In this document: piece after piece, positions 55,206 to 63,559 of the stretch | Numbering within the stretch: position 1 is the first letter of the stretch | Layout of the letters: each line of letters starts with the position of its first letter | Source of the DNA: a virus | DNA length: 64,000 bases | Virus record (IMG/VR): IMGVR_UViG_3300025645_004731 | Coordinates: 26,616 to 90,615 of that record | Strand: one strand, 5' to 3' | Translations under genes and position numbers: made by a program | The notes under the pieces: generated by a model | Databases searched by the model: none | What the model was told of the DNA's origin: nothing | The model's input: only the letters and a program-made list of their open reading frames with translations

Positions 55206-55268
55206 TATATTACCTCGTTTTGTTTCTGTCTATACTGCAGTTATACACCAAGGCACCTTGGTTGTCAA
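55206..55268 (-). repeat. Cassette promoter repeat copy
   Basis: TTGACA accaaggtgccttggtg TATAAC tgcagtatag. Confidence 0.9.
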
Positions 55269-55296
55269 GTGTTAATTTGCCTTTTAGCGAATTAAT

Positions 55297-55692
55297 TTAC
55301 GCTGCTTTCTCTGTGAACATATGGGGCGCGTTGATCATGCCAATAGCAACATCAAACAAGCCCAGGGCAACTCGTGTGCGCTGCGGAACATTGTGTTCTA
55401 CTAAGTGTGCGCTAGTGTCACGCATAAAGCATTTAATTGGGTCTTTGTGATCGTTGGTAAGATCGGTGCTATATTTCTTGTCAATTAAGTTTTCATAAGC
55501 CCGCCGCGCTTTAAACATTTCTTTCAAGTGTGTCCTATTCAGACGCTTGTTGCTGATCAACTCCTTGGATGCAAGAAGCATATCTTCTTCTGCTGAACTA
55601 ACATTATAGTTGGCATTTGAGTTCAATTCAATTACAACTTCAGCTAGTTTAACAAATACGTTTACGGTGGCGTTTGTGTTAAGTTTTGACAT
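55297..55692 (-). CDS. Hypothetical cassette gene
   Basis: Single gene between two repeats. Confidence 0.7.
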   Translation of the reverse strand: MSKLNTNATVNVFVKLAEVVIELNSNANYNVSSAEEDMLLASKELISNKRLNRTHLKEMFKARRAYENLIDKKYSTDLTNDHKDPIKCFMRDTSAHLVEHNVPQRTRVALGLFDVAIGMINAPHMFTEKAA

Positions 55693-55765
55693 GGTGATTC
55701 TCTTTTCTATGTTGTTCTGTTTGTTTCTATACTGCAGTTATACACCAAGGCACCTTGGTTGTCAA
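55693..55765 (-). repeat. Cassette promoter-leader repeat copy
   Basis: TTGACA accaaggtgccttggtg TATAAC tgcagtatagaaac...aaaagagaatcacc ATG. Confidence 0.9.
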
Positions 55766-55791
55766 GTGTTAATTTGCGTTTTTTGAAATTA

Positions 55792-56157
55792 TTATAAGCC
55801 AGCCCAGCTAATCTTGTATTTGCTGAAGATATTGCCACGAGAAAAGTTGCGAACTGGTGAATTAAATCCAGCAGGTTTAAGAATATCACCACGCTTGAAT
55901 TTCGCATCATTGTCACAGTTGACAACAAAACCCCAAACACATCCTCCATTACGTTGAGTAATTTTGATGTACTTTTTGCCTTCTGAGAAACCAATATCTG
56001 TATTAAATTCTTCGATCATTTTCAGGCGAATATCACTCACAGATTTGCCAGAACGCAAGGACCAAGTTGAATAATCTTCTTTAATAGCCTCTATCAATTC
56101 TTGAACTGCTACTTCGGTTACAATTTCAACTGCTTCTGGTGTCATGATATGTGTCAT
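55792..56157 (-). CDS. Conserved phage hypothetical cassette gene
   Basis: GKKYIKI...VWGFV...GDILKPA.F..P..N..RGNI. Confidence 0.72.
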   Translation of the reverse strand: MTHIMTPEAVEIVTEVAVQELIEAIKEDYSTWSLRSGKSVSDIRLKMIEEFNTDIGFSEGKKYIKITQRNGGCVWGFVVNCDNDAKFKRGDILKPAGFNSPVRNFSRGNIFSKYKISWAGL

Positions 56158-56218
56158 AGTGATTCTCTTTTCTCTGTTGCTATACATATAATATACACCA
56201 AGGTATCTTGGTTGTCAA
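56158..56218 (-). repeat. Cassette promoter-leader repeat copy
   Basis: TTGACA accaagataccttggtg TATATT atatgtatagcaacagagaaaagagaatcact ATG. Confidence 0.9.
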
Positions 56219-56274
56219 GTGAAAAGCGCCCCGAAAGGCGATTTTATGTAAAAATTATTCAATCCGAAGGGCGA

Positions 56275-57081
56275 TTATTTTATACCATTCCACACCGCGA
56301 ATATCTCAGATGCTTTTTTCCTAGACCCAGCAGAAGCAGAGATACTTCTAGTTACCGAAATTTGTTGAAACTTTGCGCCCTTATACAATGTTCGTGCCAT
56401 CGGAACATCGTGATTGGAAACAACGACTCTGACACCATTGCTTGCCAATGATTGGCAAATATCTGCCAACTCTTCTTGCTGTTCCATGCTAAATCCTTCT
56501 TTGGTGTAAGCAGTGAAATTCGCAGTCTCAGACGCGGGAAGATACGGAGGGTCAAAATAAACAACATCTCCTTCACCCAAATCGGTGTAATAAGATGGAT
56601 CATTGAACGATGTATTTTTGAATGTTACACCACTAAACTTGTTCTTGAAATTTTTTATTTCTTCTTCTGGGAAATGTACTTTGTCATACGCACCAAATGG
56701 TGAATTGTAATTTCCACTTTTATTATATCGTGTTAGTCCGTTGAAACAATGTCTGTTCAAATACAAAAACAAGTAAGGTGAACGAGTTTCATTGAACTCG
56801 TCTCGTATCTTATTGAACTTTTCTCGGTCTATGCCATTAATGTAATACTGCTTGGCGGTGTCTATAAAATTCTCGTCAAATAAAACCGCATTGTATAAAT
56901 CGATGATGTCAGAGTTAATATCTCCAATTCTATATTCAGTTGCGGAGGTGTTCAAGGACACGACAAAAGAACCGCCAAACGGTTCAACAAATGTATTTGG
57001 GTTGCCGATGTGTTGCTGCAACGCATCCATAACACGAATTTTATTGCCTAGCCATTTTAGTATTGATTTTTTATATGTCAT
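56275..57081 (-). CDS. dam: Dam-family (alpha class) DNA adenine methyltransferase
   Basis: LKWLGNK, FVEPFGG, DIN, YLNRHCFNGL.RYN..G.YN.PFG, YFDPPY, SN. Confidence 0.92.
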   Translation of the reverse strand: MTYKKSILKWLGNKIRVMDALQQHIGNPNTFVEPFGGSFVVSLNTSATEYRIGDINSDIIDLYNAVLFDENFIDTAKQYYINGIDREKFNKIRDEFNETRSPYLFLYLNRHCFNGLTRYNKSGNYNSPFGAYDKVHFPEEEIKNFKNKFSGVTFKNTSFNDPSYYTDLGEGDVVYFDPPYLPASETANFTAYTKEGFSMEQQEELADICQSLASNGVRVVVSNHDVPMARTLYKGAKFQQISVTRSISASAGSRKKASEIFAVWNGIK

Positions 57082-57148
57082 AAAGTTAGTATACCCTATA
57101 TAATGCATTTTTGCAATGGTATTTATTTACGTTCAAGATCATAGTCAT

Positions 57149-57241
57149 AGTGATTCTCTTTTCTCTGTTGCTATACATATAATATACACTAAGTTACCTC
57201 GGTTGTCAAGCAAAAAGCGCAACAATAAATGCTGCGCTTTC
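57149..57241 (-). repeat. Terminator hairpin + cassette promoter-leader repeat
   Basis: Same hairpin as at 50189 and 63902; the leader opens only a 20-codon ORF before dam. Confidence 0.9.
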
Positions 57242-57266
57242 AATAACTTATAAAATAGTCTGAGAT

Positions 57267-57740
57267 TTATTCGAATAAACTATTAAAGTGTTCCTGTTTT
57301 TGTTGTTCTTTCACTTCATCGTCGTATGGATGCGAATCGTCAAAGCGATAATGATAGCGTAGTCCGTCGGCACACACAATATTCTGCTCCACGATATGGC
57401 GTAGATCCTCTCGCCCACATAGCAATCTGTCCTGACACAATTTAACATTGTCTGGCATTAGGTCTACGCCATAAGTGGTGCTTAACGCAGTTTCAAAGTC
57501 ATGCTCGTTTTGTAGTTTGCGATATAACACACTAGCGAGAAACTGACCGTCACCACACGCTGGGTCTAGGAATGTTTTGGTAGAATCAATAAACAATTCA
57601 GCATCCATCTTGTCTAGTATTTCTTCTACAAGAGGAGTAGGTGTAAACACCTCGCCAGTTGCCTTAACACGACTATGCTCACGGTCTGTGCCGCTCATAT
57701 ATTCTCTGTCGAATAAGTGACTGTGTATATCAGTAATCAT
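57267..57740 (-). CDS. N-terminal (SAM-binding) half of a gamma-class N6-adenine MTase
   Basis: TGEVFTP (X), FLDPACGDGQFL (I), YGVDL (II), NIVCADGL (III); no NPPY. Confidence 0.85.
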   Translation of the reverse strand: MITDIHSHLFDREYMSGTDREHSRVKATGEVFTPTPLVEEILDKMDAELFIDSTKTFLDPACGDGQFLASVLYRKLQNEHDFETALSTTYGVDLMPDNVKLCQDRLLCGREDLRHIVEQNIVCADGLRYHYRFDDSHPYDDEVKEQQKQEHFNSLFE

Positions 57741-58524
57741 AGTTATCCATTCTGATGCTTTTCATTGCTCCTAGTGTCATGTTATTCATTCCTCCACATG
57801 CGCCCAATGCTTGACTTACAAATTCGGGCGTTTTCATATATTCAGTCAGATATTTTGCTTCTTCGTGTGTGTCCACAAACGCCAGGTTTACTCCATTAGT
57901 AGCTACTGCTGTTCCGTCACATATCACGATTTCAGTATTTGTCCAACCATCACGCTGAATCTGTTGTGGCATAATGACAGCATAACCATCCTGCGGAAAA
58001 AACTTCAACGTAGAAATATTTTCACTTGTCGTTGACTGTGTTAATCCTTTGCCGTTTATTTTATGGTAAACAGTATAAGGACCAGGCGTATCAGTCAACA
58101 AGTGCTTTTCTGTTGTCACGTTTACTTTGCCTTTCGCCCATTTAACTTTTTGTTCTGGAAGTTCTTTCAAATCTGCCCAGTCGATGTGCTCAACGTTAGT
58201 CTCGCTATTATCTTTTATTAAGCACCACGTTGATATATTGACATCAAACGTGCCATCATCTACTGACATTATCTTATTCGTGTTCTCTCGGATAAAGGAG
58301 TTAAATATGGTGTGCTGTCTACTAGTGTTCGGCACAATCATTATCACAGTATCCGCCATTGCTGTCGCCATTTTGTAAAACGCCGGGTATAGGTTGGGCG
58401 CTCTGCCTTTTTTACCAGTTTTATTTCCTGCTAAACTATAGGGTGGGTTGGCTACTATTGCATCGAATTGTACGTCCTTCAAATCAAAAAACTCCTGGTA
58501 TGTAATGTAGTTTATATCTAACAT
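57730..58524 (-). CDS. C-terminal half of a gamma-class MTase (catalytic motif IV + TRD), copy B
   Basis: MLDINYIT...FDAIVANPPY, LYP.F, MIVP, F.V; no motif I. Confidence 0.8.
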   Translation of the reverse strand: MLDINYITYQEFFDLKDVQFDAIVANPPYSLAGNKTGKKGRAPNLYPAFYKMATAMADTVIMIVPNTSRQHTIFNSFIRENTNKIMSVDDGTFDVNISTWCLIKDNSETNVEHIDWADLKELPEQKVKWAKGKVNVTTEKHLLTDTPGPYTVYHKINGKGLTQSTTSENISTLKFFPQDGYAVIMPQQIQRDGWTNTEIVICDGTAVATNGVNLAFVDTHEEAKYLTEYMKTPEFVSQALGACGGMNNMTLGAMKSIRMDNYDY

Positions 58525-58795
58525 AATTTTCAAACAACTCCTTAACTTCGTCATTAGTCCATTTTTTATTTTTATCAAACGGCGGAACATATTTTAAAGC
58601 ATCATTAAACCCTGTATTATATAATTTTTTCCACTTATCCATGTGATCTAAAAAATACTGGCTGAATAAAAATGATTTAATGTTTTCTATCTGCTCGTCG
58701 TTTTCTATTTCTATAATAACATATTGTGTTTCAAAGTCTAAGTGCGATATTTGAATAATCTCTTCTTTAAAACTTTTACTTCTAGAAATGCTCAT
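58484..58795 (-). CDS. Distal TRD fragment of MTase copy A (out of frame with 58792-59547)
   Basis: E..ENIKSFL.S..F...GFN....VP..D..K.WT.DE...F, typical of TaqI/Eco57I-like MTase C-termini. Confidence 0.65.
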   Translation of the reverse strand: MSISRSKSFKEEIIQISHLDFETQYVIIEIENDEQIENIKSFLFSQYFLDHMDKWKKLYNTGFNDALKYVPPFDKNKKWTNDEVKELFENYVRYKLHYIPGVF

Positions 58796-59547
58796 TTTTT
58801 CTTACCAGTAAACCACGGCTCTCTTTTACTGTACGCACTTAGTATTAGTTCGTCGTCTTTTACTTTATATGCAGGATAGATATGATCTGCTGTTTTTGTT
58901 TTATTATAAGCAGGTCCGTGATTGTTCTGTTTAAATGCTCTATCTGCAATAGGTAATTTTCCTAAAGCCTGTGCTAGTTCTGCAAACTTAATATCAGTTA
59001 CTGAAGGATCAAATACAGAAGTACCAAATTTGACATAATCAACACCAGCATCTGAAATTACTTTGATGTCGCCGCTATATGTTTTGTCTACGATCCAGCT
59101 ACATATTTTTGCTCCAACATTAAAATGTTTATCGGCAGTAAAGTCAATTTCTTTTACACCGTGCGTTTCTGTTAATGCAAATCTTTTAGAAAGATTAGCT
59201 ACAGCAACAGGAGTAACAAAGTTAACTGTGCCTGTTTCACTTACAAGCTCTATTGCTTTTTTAGAAAACTGGTTATAAATTTTATTTTGCTGATTGTCTT
59301 TGATGCTGTTATCCTGATAGGGTGGATTGCCGATCACTGCGTCAAATTGTACGTCCTTCAAATCAAAATACTCCTGTTGTGTAATGTAGTTTATATTCAA
59401 TGCCGATTCGTCAATGCCGTTTGCCCGAAAATACATGGACCAACGTTTCTGTGATAATCTATTTTCCAAATACACCCAGTCGCCAAGTTTGATAGTTTTC
59501 ACTTGGGCCTTAATGTGCAGATTGCTATAAACATGTAGTGTTTTCAT
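58792..59547 (-). CDS. C-terminal half of a gamma-class MTase (motif IV + proximal TRD), copy A
   Basis: FDAVIGNPPYQ, IYNQF, FVTP, HFNVG; no motif I. Confidence 0.8.
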   Translation of the reverse strand: MKTLHVYSNLHIKAQVKTIKLGDWVYLENRLSQKRWSMYFRANGIDESALNINYITQQEYFDLKDVQFDAVIGNPPYQDNSIKDNQQNKIYNQFSKKAIELVSETGTVNFVTPVAVANLSKRFALTETHGVKEIDFTADKHFNVGAKICSWIVDKTYSGDIKVISDAGVDYVKFGTSVFDPSVTDIKFAELAQALGKLPIADRAFKQNNHGPAYNKTKTADHIYPAYKVKDDELILSAYSKREPWFTGKKK

Positions 59548-59584
59548 GGCCACTTATCTCTTGATAATTTTTACTTACTACTAT

Positions 59585-59613
59585 ACTATACACCAAGGCA
59601 CCTCGGTTGTCAA
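59585..59613 (-). repeat. Promoter-only copy of the cassette repeat
   Basis: TTGACA accgaggtgccttggtg TATAGT. Confidence 0.85.
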
Positions 59614-59646
59614 GTGTTATTTGATATGTGATTCAATGTATTTTAT

Positions 59647-60750
59647 TCATTTTACCATGCCCCGTCTATCAATCTTGCCAATGGTTTCTTTTTCGGTGTC
59701 GCTTAGTTTATAAATATCCATGATTTCATCATCTGTCATTTCTACAGTCACCTCGGGATGTAAATACAATGCTGACCAGAAATTATGATACCATCTTTTA
59801 TCTAGAACAACAAATCCATCCCACGCAACTCGCGCAAACATATTGGTTTTTAACAAACGCTTTAATTTTTCGGGTTCATCATGTGTCCAATATAAGTTGG
59901 TATCTTTCGCAGTGTTATCAAACGTTAGGTAGCCATATCTTGAAGTGGAAAATCCCTTAGTTGTTAAATCTTTATCACGCGCAATTGAAATAGGGGCTTT
60001 ATTATTAATAATTTTTTCTGCAACTGATTGTAGTTCACATTCGTTGGTATAAAATCCAACATCATTAAAATTGGTCATCTTATTGTTAATAGTTGCGCCC
60101 ACAATATCCTCTGTTTTAATTCCAATAAAATAACAGATTTTAATACCTACTGTAAAGTAGCTAGAAACATCTGTTTCGGCTTTTAAAATATTGATACCTT
60201 TCATACCAGAAATAGCAGTGCCACATTGACCATAAACAGTTGTTTTGAATATAGCGGACGGCACAACTAACGCAACAATTCCGTCATCTTTTAATAAATT
60301 CGATATTTTTTCCATAACAGAAACATACATCTTTTTTCCGCCACCTTGGTTCGTTTTTTTGTTGGCACGAACTGGATTCTGGTACGGAGGATTACCAACT
60401 ACAGCATCAAATTTCATATTCATTAATTCCTTAATCATAATATACTTATATCCTAGATGCTCCGTGATTTTTTTTGTTTCTGGACAAAAATTCTCAGTAG
60501 CAACAGTGACATTTTTTGCTCCTCGGTCGAATAATTCAGCCGCGAATTCAACAGCGAACAACACCAAGAAACTTTCGTGTTTGTGACTGATCGAATCTAA
60601 CATTCTACGAACAAGTCGGCTGGGCGTATATGGCACCGGATTATTGGTGAATGTCGGGCCCTTTGCACCAGATCTCAATGTACAAATGACCCCACCCTCT
60701 TCATTGCTAATTATATTTCTAAACTTGCTTTTCTCAGATAATAGGCCCAT
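59647..60750 (-). CDS. Gamma-class MTase-TRD with degenerate SAM-binding motif, copy C
   Basis: PYTP..LV.RML (X-like); FLVLFAVEF in place of DPxxGxG; FDAVVGNPPYQ; GIVALVVP; TRD tail. Confidence 0.78.
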   Translation of the reverse strand: MGLLSEKSKFRNIISNEEGGVICTLRSGAKGPTFTNNPVPYTPSRLVRRMLDSISHKHESFLVLFAVEFAAELFDRGAKNVTVATENFCPETKKITEHLGYKYIMIKELMNMKFDAVVGNPPYQNPVRANKKTNQGGGKKMYVSVMEKISNLLKDDGIVALVVPSAIFKTTVYGQCGTAISGMKGINILKAETDVSSYFTVGIKICYFIGIKTEDIVGATINNKMTNFNDVGFYTNECELQSVAEKIINNKAPISIARDKDLTTKGFSTSRYGYLTFDNTAKDTNLYWTHDEPEKLKRLLKTNMFARVAWDGFVVLDKRWYHNFWSALYLHPEVTVEMTDDEIMDIYKLSDTEKETIGKIDRRGMVK

Positions 60751-60810
60751 AGTGATTCTCTTTTTTTGTTTCTATACTGCAGTTATACACCAAGGCACCT
60801 CGGTTGTCAA
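60751..60810 (-). repeat. Cassette promoter-leader repeat copy
   Basis: TTGACA accgaggtgccttggtg TATAAC tgcagtatagaaacaaaaaaagagaatcact ATG. Confidence 0.9.
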
Positions 60811-60823
60811 GCGAAAAATAAAA

Positions 60824-61588
60824 TTAAAGCTTGGCTAATAGATCATCTTCTTCTTTTAATTTATTCTGCATAGTTTCCCATTCTGGATCCTTGGGTCCGT
60901 TAATAAGTAATGGCATTATGCCGAGTTTTTTACGGAATTCATTCCAAAAGAATGGATTTCCATTAATTTTTTTACTAATTTTCTTGTAGTTTATCACTTC
61001 GATATCGCCGAAGGTATTCGCTTCTAGTTTATAATGTAATCCTTTGGCAGTAGTAAAAAGAATATAACGAGCAAAGCATCCTTGACCAGACATTCTGGCA
61101 TGTCCTTGGGCATTGCCGAAAAAGTTCATGACTCTGCTGCCATCATTGGTGGTATGCTCTTTTGTTGGATTTAAGCTACCCTTAACTTGAAGATATACTG
61201 GGCTTCCAGATTTCGAAATCTTGCGAATTCTTTTACCATAAGATTTTTCTTGGGATGTATTTGCTGTTGCGTCATATCCCGTGTCTTCTAGATCCTCGTC
61301 GATTGTATCCATACTGATATAACTTCCTAAATTATAATCACTGAGTCCGAAAGTTTCAAAGAATACTTCACTCAATGCCTCTACCCCTGCTCCGAAATAT
61401 CTTGGTGCCTTGATGCTTTTATTATCCTCGTCTGTATGTGACATCCGTAAATCCTCACGATACGGAATTAATGCATCAATATTGTTTGATTGTTTTTTTA
61501 GAGCAAGAAGGAACTTATCTAATTTCTGAATTTTATCGAATGCGGTAGTATCAATACAATACTTAAACCAACTATGTTTATTTGACAT
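60824..61588 (-). CDS. Mrr-like PD-(D/E/Q)XK endonuclease candidate
   Basis: G..VEALSE.FF...DTGYDA...YLQVK...ILFTTA, the E..D..QxK pattern; coupled to the helicase by TAATG. Confidence 0.6.
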   Translation of the reverse strand: MSNKHSWFKYCIDTTAFDKIQKLDKFLLALKKQSNNIDALIPYREDLRMSHTDEDNKSIKAPRYFGAGVEALSEVFFETFGLSDYNLGSYISMDTIDEDLEDTGYDATANTSQEKSYGKRIRKISKSGSPVYLQVKGSLNPTKEHTTNDGSRVMNFFGNAQGHARMSGQGCFARYILFTTAKGLHYKLEANTFGDIEVINYKKISKKINGNPFFWNEFRKKLGIMPLLINGPKDPEWETMQNKLKEEDDLLAKL

Positions 61589-63000
61589 TATTGTACTTCC
61601 TTCGCTGATGTATCAAACAATTCCCAGAATAATGCGTCCTGGCCTTCTGTTACTAGAATATCGGTTGCTTCCTTATAAATTGCATCATCACGATCCATCA
61701 ACTCACCGCCTGGCGTCGGCATATTATGTTGATCCTCAACATCTGCCCAGAACTCAGCAAGATCATAGCCACCTTGCTCAAACATGGCAGCATAGGTAGA
61801 TAAATTGGAATCACCTGCCCATTCTCCGTTGAATCTGGCAATAGTAACAATACATTCTGTCTTGATTCGATTCTTGCGAAGTTCTCCGGCAAGAGCACCA
61901 GACTTGATAATATCAGCGTTTGCCGCACGGCACCCACGGCCGATTGTCTGAATTGCTTTTACCATGCCAAGACCGCGCAAGATCAACACTCCGCCGATGC
62001 CGTCAACATCAATGCCTTCGGCTAATGTATCACAATGCATGATGATAGAAGGATTAGGATTTTTAGCAAAGTCGGCAACTAGCGCATCTCGGTCCATCTG
62101 TAGGCTACCGTTCTTCACTGCTGTATCAGCAGTAACATAATAAAGATCAATATCGTTATTTCCTACAATATTGCGAATCTCACTCAATTCGTTCGCAATA
62201 TCCGAAAAGTTCATGGTATTGGGCATTGCTACCAACATCTTATGAACGAAATCCTTATGCGCAAATGTCAGTTGGTCCTTAAACGCCGCGGCGATAGCAG
62301 ATACATAATCTTCGGTATTGCCGTTATCAGTACTGAGAACATTTACAGTACGAATTCGCGGGCGGACAATATATCCGTTAGGAATAAGTTCTTTTGGCGA
62401 TACATCAGCAATCACTGGTCCAAATAGTTCAACATTATCCATACTCGCTTCTGCTGCTGCCATACGAACGGGCGTACCAGTATAGAACAGTGTCTTTGAT
62501 TTAAACAGATGCATATTCTCGCGCAGGTCAGATTGTACTAGATAGTGCGCTTCATCACAGATGATAAGATCAAAGTTCATAGCAGCGATACGATGTAAAC
62601 TTTTATAACTTGAAAATGTTATATGCGCTCCATTATGAGAATTCATAATTTCTTGCAACACGTTCGTATCTGTAGTGGATACATTCTTCTTATCGTTCAG
62701 AGTATGCGTCTTTGCTTGACCGCTATGAAAGTTCGTAAACTCAATTCCCATGCCGGCGAATGTTTTAGCAAAACGATTTTGCTGATTCTGGCTTAGTGCT
62801 ATACGTGGATGAACTACAAGAATACGTGCTGCGCCGTGAGACATAGCAGTAACTACTTTCATAATTAAATCTTGAAAAACTTCTGTTTTGCCGCCGCCAG
62901 TAGCACATAAAATAGTGCCACGGGTAGCATCAGGATCAGACATGAATTTATCTTGTGCCTGTATCATGCGAACTTGGTATGGTCTAAACTTCATAGTCAT
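61588..63000 (-). CDS. SF2 helicase/ATPase (Type ISP / ResIII-like)
   Basis: RPYQ, ATGGGKT, VHPRIALSQ, FSSYKS, IICDEAH, YTGTP, LAEGIDV, QTIGRGCR. Confidence 0.9.
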   Translation of the reverse strand: MTMKFRPYQVRMIQAQDKFMSDPDATRGTILCATGGGKTEVFQDLIMKVVTAMSHGAARILVVHPRIALSQNQQNRFAKTFAGMGIEFTNFHSGQAKTHTLNDKKNVSTTDTNVLQEIMNSHNGAHITFSSYKSLHRIAAMNFDLIICDEAHYLVQSDLRENMHLFKSKTLFYTGTPVRMAAAEASMDNVELFGPVIADVSPKELIPNGYIVRPRIRTVNVLSTDNGNTEDYVSAIAAAFKDQLTFAHKDFVHKMLVAMPNTMNFSDIANELSEIRNIVGNNDIDLYYVTADTAVKNGSLQMDRDALVADFAKNPNPSIIMHCDTLAEGIDVDGIGGVLILRGLGMVKAIQTIGRGCRAANADIIKSGALAGELRKNRIKTECIVTIARFNGEWAGDSNLSTYAAMFEQGGYDLAEFWADVEDQHNMPTPGGELMDRDDAIYKEATDILVTEGQDALFWELFDTSAKEVQ

Positions 63001-63061
63001 AACGATTCTCTTTTCTTTGTTTCTATACTGCAGTTATACACCAAGGCGCATTGGTTGTCAA
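63001..63061 (-). repeat. Cassette promoter-leader repeat copy
   Basis: TTGACA accaatgcgccttggtg TATAAC tgcagtatagaaacaaagaaaagagaatcgtt ATG. Confidence 0.9.
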
Positions 63062-63090
63062 GTGTTAAATGACATTATTATTAAAAAAAG

Positions 63091-63498
63091 TTATACTGCT
63101 TCCTTTGATGAAACAATCTCTTTGCCGAACTTGCTAGTCCCAATAAGAGTATAGTTATTGCGGATATTCTCTGGTGTTGCTGGAACGCCGTCGAAGTAAC
63201 TTACGCCATCTACATACCAGTCTAATGGAAACTCATACGTCTCGACAACCATATTGTCGTTCATGCCTCCAGCATCGGCGACACTACAAATAGCATCTTT
63301 GATTGACTGGTCGTTCAACTTATCAAACACACGCTGATGAACAATAAACTCTACGGCGCATCCGCCATCTGCGTCATGTGTGATATTAGGACTGATACGC
63401 AACCCAGTCTGTTCTAGTAGGGCAGAATATACTTCGTGAATGTCGCGGTAGCATTCGGCTGCTGTTGTGTAAATCTTAACTTGTTTTGTAGTAGTCAT
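63091..63498 (-). CDS. Hypothetical cassette gene
   Basis: Single gene between two repeats. Confidence 0.7.
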   Translation of the reverse strand: MTTTKQVKIYTTAAECYRDIHEVYSALLEQTGLRISPNITHDADGGCAVEFIVHQRVFDKLNDQSIKDAICSVADAGGMNDNMVVETYEFPLDWYVDGVSYFDGVPATPENIRNNYTLIGTSKFGKEIVSSKEAV

Positions 63499-63559
63499 AG
63501 TGATTCTCTTTTCTTTGTTTCTATACTGCAGTTATACAGTAAGGCATCTTGGTTGTCAA
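63499..63559 (-). repeat. Cassette promoter-leader repeat copy
   Basis: TTGACA accaagatgccttactg TATAAC tgcagtatagaaacaaagaaaagagaatcact ATG. Confidence 0.9.

Follow-up and report, generated by a model that had tools for sequence, protein, structure and literature searches.

We analyzed a 64-kb window, namely the last 64 kb of the 90,615-bp IMG/VR virus record IMGVR_UViG_3300025645_004731, which carries phage genes and, between 57.2 and 60.8 kb, a group of methylase open reading frames (ORFs) that all lie on the minus strand in the order paralog C, partner A, a 103-amino-acid (aa) ORF, partner B, and a 157-aa ORF. We concluded that B and the 157-aa protein are probably two subunits of one N6-adenine DNA methyltransferase. 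B would supply strands beta4-beta7, the NPPY adenine pocket, and the target-recognition domain (TRD), and the 157-aa protein would supply motif X, strands beta1-beta3, and the S-adenosylmethionine (SAM) pocket. Both chains would be made from one transcript by translational coupling, with the ATG of the small gene lying within the last codons of its partner at a conserved TATG. The conclusion is carried by the anatomy of the two genes, their conservation, the selection acting on them, their fused relatives, and the predicted interface; we infer that the chains assemble by beta1-beta4 pairing at the switch point of the Rossmann-like sheet and form a heterodimeric methyltransferase that marks phage DNA with N6-methyladenine (m6A). 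Judged by gene content, the split two-gene state is the normal one in a large aquatic-phage family. The features of the pair are the following (nt, nucleotides).

57267..57740, minus strand: SAM-binding half, 157 aa, with motifs X, I, II, and III, without motif IV and without a TRD
57730..58524, minus strand: partner B, 264 aa from the ATG at 58524, with a beta3 remnant, motif IV, the rest of the catalytic half, and the TRD
58538..58543, minus strand: AAGGAG, 13 nt 5' of the proposed B start, a putative ribosome-binding site

Anatomy of the two halves

The 157-aa protein matched the Pfam family N6_Mtase (PF02384) only at profile positions 22-97 of 311 (E 6.6e-7; 29.4 bits against a cutoff of 20.4). 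It contains motif X (GEVFTP), motif I (DPACGDG), motif II (YGVD), and motif III (NIVCADG), and the chain ends past motif III, in agreement with the first-pass annotation of this DNA, which had described a protein with these four motifs that stops before motif IV. Residues D59, P60, G63, D64, and G65 are invariant among 54 sequences, and the SAM halves collected in alignment A1 share 38-89% identity with the window protein. Among solved structures, the nearest in sequence is the N-terminus of M.BseCI (residues 10-93; SAM-half profile, E 1.3e-8), and the same profile also finds Type I M subunits. The SAM-half gene is present in a single copy in the 90.6-kb genome.

The ORF of B is open from 58590 (57730-58590, 286 aa as listed), and its start is probably the ATG at 58524, 25 residues ahead of NPPY, as judged from the homologue in locus L005 and from the upstream AAGGAG. 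(L-numbers denote IMG/VR or JGI loci, P-numbers denote longer database proteins, and X5, X8, and X9 are contigs of other samples.) B had been described as beginning just upstream of motif IV. The protein begins with a beta3 remnant (INYIT) followed by motif IV (FDAIVANPPY), and it matched only the later part of the Pfam Eco57I profile (PF07669; E 3e-7, above the 25.3-bit cutoff). In alignments A2 and A4, the N, P, and P of motif IV do not vary. B shares 69% identity with its L005 homologue, which has the same junction with its SAM half, and the other partners are just 16-22% identical to B. In the window, the stop of B overlaps the start of the 157-aa gene by 11 nt.

Conservation of the split and selection

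A word-indexed protein search with the 157-aa protein (E<=1e-3) returned 6065 proteins of 86-275 aa, the best 120 of which are 143-182 aa long and 75-92% identical to it, and just 27 longer matches (276-2000 aa). A standalone SAM-half ORF was found in 69 of 72 IMG/VR loci. In 66 of those 69, an upstream ORF ends between -250 and +150 nt from the SAM-half start. Across these 66 loci the junction offsets, always out of frame, span -35 to +4 nt, the partner starts less than 20 aa before motif IV in 45, and the SAM-half ATG lies inside TATG in 55. This TATG holds the tyrosine codon of the conserved C-terminal '...LTxEExxYV' helix of the partner.

Both the small gene and B are under strong purifying selection, with saturated synonymous sites. 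Comparison of the 157-aa protein with five relatives (73-80% aa identity) gave proportions of nonsynonymous differences (pN) of 0.15-0.20 and of synonymous differences (pS) of 0.75-0.91, and comparison of B with its L005 homologue gave a pN of 0.20 and a pS of 0.74. Conservation of the split point and purifying selection, which the first-pass annotation had proposed to check in homologous loci, were thus both found. Since the split is kept in 69 of 72 loci and selection is purifying, the family does not consist of homologues that are always fused, with a ratio of nonsynonymous to synonymous rates (dN/dS) near 1 for the separate pieces. The same count, together with the restriction of the small protein to PF02384 positions 22-97 and of B to the later part of PF07669, bears out the proposal that the halves are complementary and not wreckage.

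It is scarcely credible, then, that the locus holds functionless fragments of a once-intact methyltransferase. Such decay would suit partner A, which is frameshifted (see below) and which, like the 103-aa ORF, has a higher dN/dS against L079 (0.51 and 0.33, respectively) than B and the small protein. For A alone, decay is possible. Pseudogene decay of B and the small protein was rejected, being contradicted by thousands of same-length homologues, by the conserved junction, and by a pN of ~0.2 with saturated synonymous sites.

Motif order and fused relatives

In the window, the gene for the catalytic/TRD part comes first and the SAM half comes second. The same layout was found in 19 of the 27 longer relatives, each a single chain that carries motif IV at residues 7-9 and the SAM half at its C-terminus. 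One relative (P0127) has the SAM half first and NPAF after it, and the remaining seven have no credible catalytic half. Aeromonas phage avDM12-TAAL encodes P0001, a protein of 415 aa that begins with FDYMIANPPY, ends in a SAM half, and is colinear with B followed by the 157-aa protein.

None of the proteins matched N6_N4_Mtase, the beta-class family profile, when Pfam hits were taken up to E<=0.1. The arrangement in which motif IV comes first, the TRD second, and motif I third is nevertheless that of class beta, exemplified by M.PvuII, M.RsrI, and CcrM, for which a dimer-based division of labour is also described in the accessible portion of PMC7544214. Because B precedes the 157-aa gene and 19 of 27 longer relatives share this layout, the family is one that is gamma-like by sequence and fold but has the beta order, with a break that separates the TRD from motif X. 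The initial description as a simple split gamma enzyme had to be abandoned, as a layout of IV-VIII/TRD followed by X-I-III is the beta order, and the pair is gamma-like in sequence only.

The gamma-class enzymes M.TaqI, CamA, and M.BseCI (PF02384, PF07669) have the same motifs X, I-III, and NPPY and the same fold, but they are single chains in the order X-I-III-IV-VIII-TRD, whereas here the SAM part is separate and encoded after the catalytic/TRD part; only C keeps the gamma order, with the glycine loop lost. The class-beta enzymes M.PvuII, M.RsrI, and CcrM share the IV-TRD-I order with the gene pair and its 19 fused relatives. In contrast to them, motif IV is here NPPY or NPPF, the TRD is TaqI-like, and a break in the chain divides the TRD from motif X.

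The fused relatives also bear on a recoding mechanism, in which a programmed frameshift in the 11-nt overlap would fuse B to the 157-aa frame and yield one beta-order chain. The existence of such chains and the +1 position of the SAM-half frame relative to its partner in most loci agree with it. On the other hand, the overlaps differ in length (-35 to +4 nt), small gaps and both frame offsets occur among them, no common slippery sequence was seen in the listed junctions, and the small ORF has its own ATG, usually after a purine-rich stretch from the EE codons of the partner. Recoding is therefore highly improbable as an account of the junction, and we return to two separately translated subunits.

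Predicted complex of B and the 157-aa protein

The 157-aa protein was modelled in complex with B, taken from its ATG at 58524; each chain was given an alignment of relatives, and three controls were run. The pair reached an interface score (ipSAE) of 0.79, and the best of the three controls scored 0.00; 58 of 80 solved complexes but just 2 of 110 mismatched pairs attained the 0.79 mark. The runs share at least 79% of their contacts, and the predicted local distance difference test value (pLDDT) of the partner is at least 80. The contacts with the lowest error connect B residues 20-25 (FDAIVA, beta4) to residues 55-60 of the 157-aa protein (KTFLDP, beta1). This beta1/beta4 pairing is the switch point of the methyltransferase sheet according to the accessible portion of PMC7544214. 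The reconstituted Rossmann sheet that the first-pass annotation had expected from such a model is thus predicted for B and the 157-aa protein.

Several points weigh against a methyltransferase assembled from these two chains. The calibration of the ipSAE score is only rough because our own alignments were used in the model, and the score may echo known single-chain methyltransferases. The upstream partner has its own canonical glycine loop in five of the 66 loci and a long N-terminal domain in nine more, and in L078 an A-type partner with an intact loop stands next to the SAM half. The small protein is therefore not needed to complete the fold there, which leaves room for another role. The SAM-half domain is also present in proteins without a catalytic half (P0124, P0126, P0129, P0132, and P0142). 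Finally, metatranscriptome contigs from two libraries labelled freshwater cover most of the stretch, including both gene junctions, and match the B/SAM-half junction (57502-57970) and the A/103-aa junction (58604-58892) without differences, but this coverage is weak support for expression of the stretch because RNA libraries can contain DNA.

Some of these points would suit an autonomous SAM-binding protein (a regulator, a sensor, or a domain of other proteins) standing beside inactive truncated partners. The fusion of the SAM half to unrelated regions in the five proteins just named and its persistence 3' of partners with an intact motif I speak for this role. We nevertheless consider it very unlikely, since the 45 of 66 conserved partners that start at beta4 would be unable to bind SAM or to fold a full sheet alone, the 19 single-chain relatives join exactly the B-like and SAM parts, and the predicted interface is the canonical beta1/beta4 pairing.

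Two other settings of the SAM-half domain were observed. In P0129 (788 aa), P0132 (944 aa), L017, and L018, it lies inside long Pro/Ala-rich proteins without a methyltransferase catalytic half. In the T4-like cyanophage ACG-2014f (L001; KJ019037.1 35896-38212), a 134-aa SAM-half homologue annotated as hypothetical stands first; after it come an ORF of 200 aa, a 'DNA methyltransferase' of 393 aa, and a helicase, so that the halves are non-adjacent and their order is not reversed.

Partner A and its frameshift

Upstream of B lie the two ORFs of A and, farther upstream, paralog C.

58792..59547, minus strand: partner A, 251 aa from the ATG at 59547, with a degenerate beta1-beta3 leader, motif IV (FDAVIGNPPY), and the first part of the TRD
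58484..58795, minus strand: 103-aa ORF, the C-terminal part of the TRD of A (IENIKSF... KKWTNDEVKELFENY), whose 3' end overlaps the B start
58795..58803, minus strand: frameshift site AAG AAA AAA, with the A6 run at 58795-58800 directly before the TGA of A
59647..60750, minus strand: paralog C, 367 aa, one chain in gamma order that holds motif X, beta1-beta3, NPPY, and a TaqI/CamA-like TRD

As listed, A spans 58792-59553 (253 aa), and its start is probably the ATG at 59547. It has no motif X and no glycine loop, and it matched only the later part of PF07669 (E 1.6e-11, above cutoff). The first-pass annotation had treated A as an intact partner beginning just upstream of motif IV, and both parts of this description failed. 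A is cut by a frameshift into the 253-aa and 103-aa ORFs, and ~65 residues precede its motif IV. These residues are well conserved in A-type proteins (MxTLHVYSNRHIK...) and align with an intact motif I (ILNVACGHG) in L078. In the model of L076, an intact A-type protein, they form a beta1-alphaA-beta2-alphaB-beta3 leader (pLDDT 82-90 there, 63 overall); the model is poor in the TRD (pLDDT <50, residues 186-281), and its N-terminal 80 residues alone were used. Based on this model, A would be a full sheet without motif X and the glycine loop.

The A and 103-aa ORFs overlap as ATGA, with the ATG of the latter over the TGA of the former, and the -1 frame opens just 6 nt ahead of the 103-aa ATG. In L076, L077, and L078 (43-50% identity to A), the two parts form one ORF in one frame, and likewise they lie in a single ORF in L079 (71% and 78% identity), against which the window lacks 4 nt at the frameshift site. 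The assignment of the 103-aa ORF to the TRD comes from L076-L079; its BLASTP match to the L006 partner was not significant (E 0.099). The frameshift belongs to the phage population and did not arise in assembly, since the same sequence occurs without gaps in contigs X5 (57669-59557), X8 (58565-59165), and X9 (58604-58892). A sequencing error was accordingly ruled out by two other DNA samples (X5 and X8) and one RNA library (X9). A minority variant with intact A may exist, since contigs drop rare variants. From the sequence of the site, -1 slippage on the lysine codons would give an uninterrupted A protein. A partner split in two ORFs (162 aa with NPPF, then 144 aa) 5' of an intact SAM half was also seen in L066 (1803-2722).

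Paralog C

Paralog C matched only the later part of PF07669 (E 8e-13, above cutoff) and has FLVLFAVEF at the position of the glycine loop of its relatives. In an alignment of ten C-type sequences, a 9-residue deletion of the loop is common to six including C, and four keep DPxxGxG-like loops; the decayed motif I read initially in C is thus substantiated as a shared deletion. The SAM-half profile aligns to C residues 26-115 (hhalign Prob 93%, E 2.6e-7). The AlphaFold2 model of C (mean pLDDT 84.5) places beta1 (61-64), beta2 (81-85), and beta3 (102-105) beside beta4 (114-119), and it matches CamA, M.TaqI, and M.BseCI (Foldseek E 4e-10 to 1e-8). By this model, C is a complete gamma-order fold with the SAM loop gone, the sheet being complete without the small protein, and it probably cannot bind SAM in the usual way. 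Among the best 150 C representatives from a full-library search, most have motif IV at ~90-165 with no canonical loop before it, about a dozen have a canonical loop, nine start at motif IV, and others have starts in between; these canonical-loop counts, like those for the 66 loci, are approximate because the regular expression used for the glycine loop misses variants such as DPAMAGG (L024).

Two internal ATGs of C, M110 and M112, are preceded at a distance of 4 and 10 nt by an AAGGA (60415-60431) and stand just ahead of KFDAVVGNPPY. An internal start there would give a beta4-start isoform like the short partners.

A possibly shared SAM half and stacked cassettes

The proposal that the small protein complements the sheets of A and C in the same simple manner as that of B does not agree with the models, in which C and the A-type protein already hold a beta1-beta3 of their own, so that no half is missing there for the 157-aa protein simply to fill. 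One 157-aa subunit might still serve B, A, and C in turn and so provide several methylation motifs, a possibility that we infer only tentatively. For A and C, it needs displacement of their own degenerate beta1-beta3 or an internally started isoform. The genome has one SAM half against three NPPY/TRD genes, and each partner type occurs directly 5' of a SAM half elsewhere: the A type in L006, L076, L077, and L078, the C type in L007, L015, L023, and L027, and the B type in L005. In L079 there are three tandem partner genes. In the window, the 103-aa ORF and B each lead into the following gene through the same TATG junction, where its ATG lies. Relatives of C retain N-terminal remnants of every length, from the motif X start to the beta4 start, a gradation that fits a part made dispensable by a trans-acting half, and the AAGGA before M110 and M112 would serve the isoform. 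Against sharing, C and the A-type protein are modelled with their own beta1-beta3 packed in place, in most of the best 150 C representatives motif IV is still preceded by 90 or more residues that lack a canonical loop, which looks like maintenance rather than a vestige, and A is frameshifted in this phage population.

The first 20 residues of B (LDINYITYQEFFDLKDVQ) are the beta3 region of an A-type gene, as seen in an 80-nt direct repeat.

59317..59396: 80-nt direct repeat, copy 1 (beta3 to motif IV of A), 86% identical to copy 2
58438..58517: 80-nt direct repeat, copy 2 (5' end of B), 86% identical to copy 1

Outside this repeat, the A and B proteins are far more diverged. B has its start codon in the TATG at which the 103-aa ORF ends ('...ELFENYV'), a junction of the type that elsewhere leads into the SAM half. 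In L079, a junction of the 103-aa type is followed by two further partners, and catalytic/TRD cassettes therefore appear, on sequence grounds, to be stacked at this junction.

Several forms occur within one family: a full gamma gene with a SAM half, a dead-loop gamma gene with the half, truncated genes with the half, fused IV-TRD-I chains, and one fused I-IV chain, as permutation models need. Circular permutation of DNA methyltransferases reportedly proceeds via duplication and truncation (Jeltsch, in 1999) or is said to proceed via fragmentation and reshuffling (Bujnicki, in 2002). It is conceivable, though on balance doubtful, that the operon and its relatives preserve stages of a passage from gamma order to beta order via a trans-acting SAM half, which would now be a constant subunit multiplying specificities by cassettes inserted at TATG. 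The stages would be C with its dead loop, A shortened at the N-terminus, B cut back to beta3, and the relatives, which have a beta4 start or are IV-TRD-I fusions. This series orders the forms and not their history, since no rooted tree gives a direction.

Expression signals and local variation

The methylase genes are framed by two promoters and a terminator.

59585..59613, minus strand: promoter of the unit of A, the 103-aa ORF, B, and the SAM half (TTGACA-17-TATAGT, 11/12 positions)
60782..60810, minus strand: promoter of C (TTGACA-17-TATAAC)
57213..57241, minus strand: intrinsic terminator, a hairpin followed by a U run, 3' of the SAM half, found by folding

The terminator, which the first-pass annotation had placed at 57212-57241, was recovered essentially at that position; the hairpin was missed by a simple terminator scan and revealed by folding of the stretch (-18.5 kcal/mol, z -3.7, 0 of 200 shuffles as good). 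Together with the promoter at 59585-59613 and the overlap of B with the SAM half, it upholds the claim of a single operon of A, B, and the SAM half, except that A is frameshifted. The extended promoter word TTGACAACCRAGGT has 14 matches in the window against 0.79 expected and heads many minus-strand genes; its sites span 55255-63559 and include 57196-57209, 59600-59613, and 60797-60810.

The 28-nt promoter cassette before C (60784-60811) is identical to the cassette before A. The X5 and X8 DNA contigs join 59619 to 60765, which would delete C between the two identical promoters. We gave this joint no weight because one of its sides is 24 nt only and lies inside the repeated promoter, and it may be a repeat artefact. 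Contigs of the same samples diverge from the window at 57253-57269 (ends of the small gene) and at 59582-59619 and 60748-60761 (both ends of C). This divergence at the boundaries of the small gene and C suggests that related phages in the sampled waters carry other cassettes there. The region 56000-61600 gave no megablast match in the phage collection.

Comparison with other split enzymes

In Type I enzymes, the recognition subunit is apart from the methyltransferase, and the fold itself is undivided. Division of the fold is known for C5-cytosine enzymes, among which M.EcoHK31I and M.AquI are naturally bisected. M.AquI consists of alpha and beta subunits, as cited in the accessible portion of PMC5944983 (refs 45, 46). 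The present pair resembles it in that one DNA methyltransferase fold would arise from two separately encoded chains. It differs in being an NPPY amino-methyltransferase whose cut parts X-I-III from IV-VIII-TRD at the beta1/beta4 switch point, in its reversed gene order, and in a cofactor half that is much more conserved than its partners. A literature search, in which subscription journals were thinly covered and REBASE lay outside the scope, found no published amino-methyltransferase split at beta1/beta4 with reversed gene order and no phage split N6-adenine enzyme; the accessible portion of preprint 10.1101/2023.12.13.571470 does not treat split enzymes. The window contributes, at one site, a single SAM half together with three partners that each have a different truncation grade, one of them with a population-wide frameshift.

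Circular permutation has its textbook example in the DNA methyltransferases, and its intermediates have so far been argued from models rather than seen. The coupled halves, the fusions in both orders, and the partners at every grade of N-terminal loss make permutation testable with natural sequences. If a constant cofactor subunit does work with variable catalytic/recognition subunits, this would be a new phage route to diversified self-methylation against host restriction, and a shared-cofactor architecture, if true, would be a natural template for split methyltransferase tools. At present the SAM-half family is annotated as 'hypothetical protein' or 'type I methylase subunit', and methylome predictions for aquatic phages therefore miss it.

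Neighbouring genes

Three genes flank the methylase group.

60824..61588, minus strand: 254-aa protein, probably a Mrr-like nuclease (BLASTP E 6e-10 to an L023 protein)
61588..63000, minus strand: superfamily 2 (SF2) helicase (ResIII, DEAD; Pfam)
56275..57108, minus strand: Dam-type (D12) adenine methyltransferase (Pfam), with its own promoter at 57181-57209

The L023 protein and its L015 counterpart match Pfam Mrr_cat_2 above cutoff, and for the 254-aa protein itself neither Pfam nor PADLOC gave a hit. A helicase and a Mrr-like candidate stand upstream of the methylase genes in the window (60824-63000), in L015 (635-2705), and in L023 (2805-4792); these could be replication genes only.

Type ISP enzymes such as LlaGI and LlaBIII carry a nuclease, a helicase-like motor, a methyltransferase, and a TRD in one polypeptide. 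The neighbourhood described here combines a probable Mrr-like nuclease and an SF2 helicase with a TRD-bearing adenine methyltransferase of gamma-like type, but in separate ORFs, in a different order, under several promoters, and with weak helicase hits. Together with the helicase and the Mrr-like protein, the methyltransferase/TRD genes and the SAM half could form a restriction-like module that acts like a Type ISP enzyme taken apart and in which methylation protects the phage DNA. The order helicase, Mrr-like protein, C-type methyltransferase, SAM half recurs in L015 and L023/L026, the 254-aa protein is tied to Mrr_cat_2 through L023, and the helicase gives weak hits to models of Type I and IIG restriction helicases. 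All of these restriction-family hits are, however, far below curated cutoffs, and the relatives of the helicase in cultured phages go by the name 'DNA helicase' in 398 T4-like cyanophage records and may act in replication or recombination. The missing hits of the 254-aa protein itself and the separate genes with separate promoters also argue against a module. We consider it unlikely, though compatible with a two-subunit methyltransferase of B and the 157-aa protein.

A conserved ORF of ~374 aa was found directly 5' of a short-type partner in L037 (3979-5100), L029 (3979-5100), L019 (4012-5124), and about ten more IMG/VR loci. It has no hit in Pfam, PHROGs, PADLOC, or NCBIfam. Its KGDF...SLKNYK pattern resembles the PD-(D/E)xK nuclease motif, and the ORF is a candidate restriction endonuclease of a phage-borne restriction-modification unit with a split methylase.

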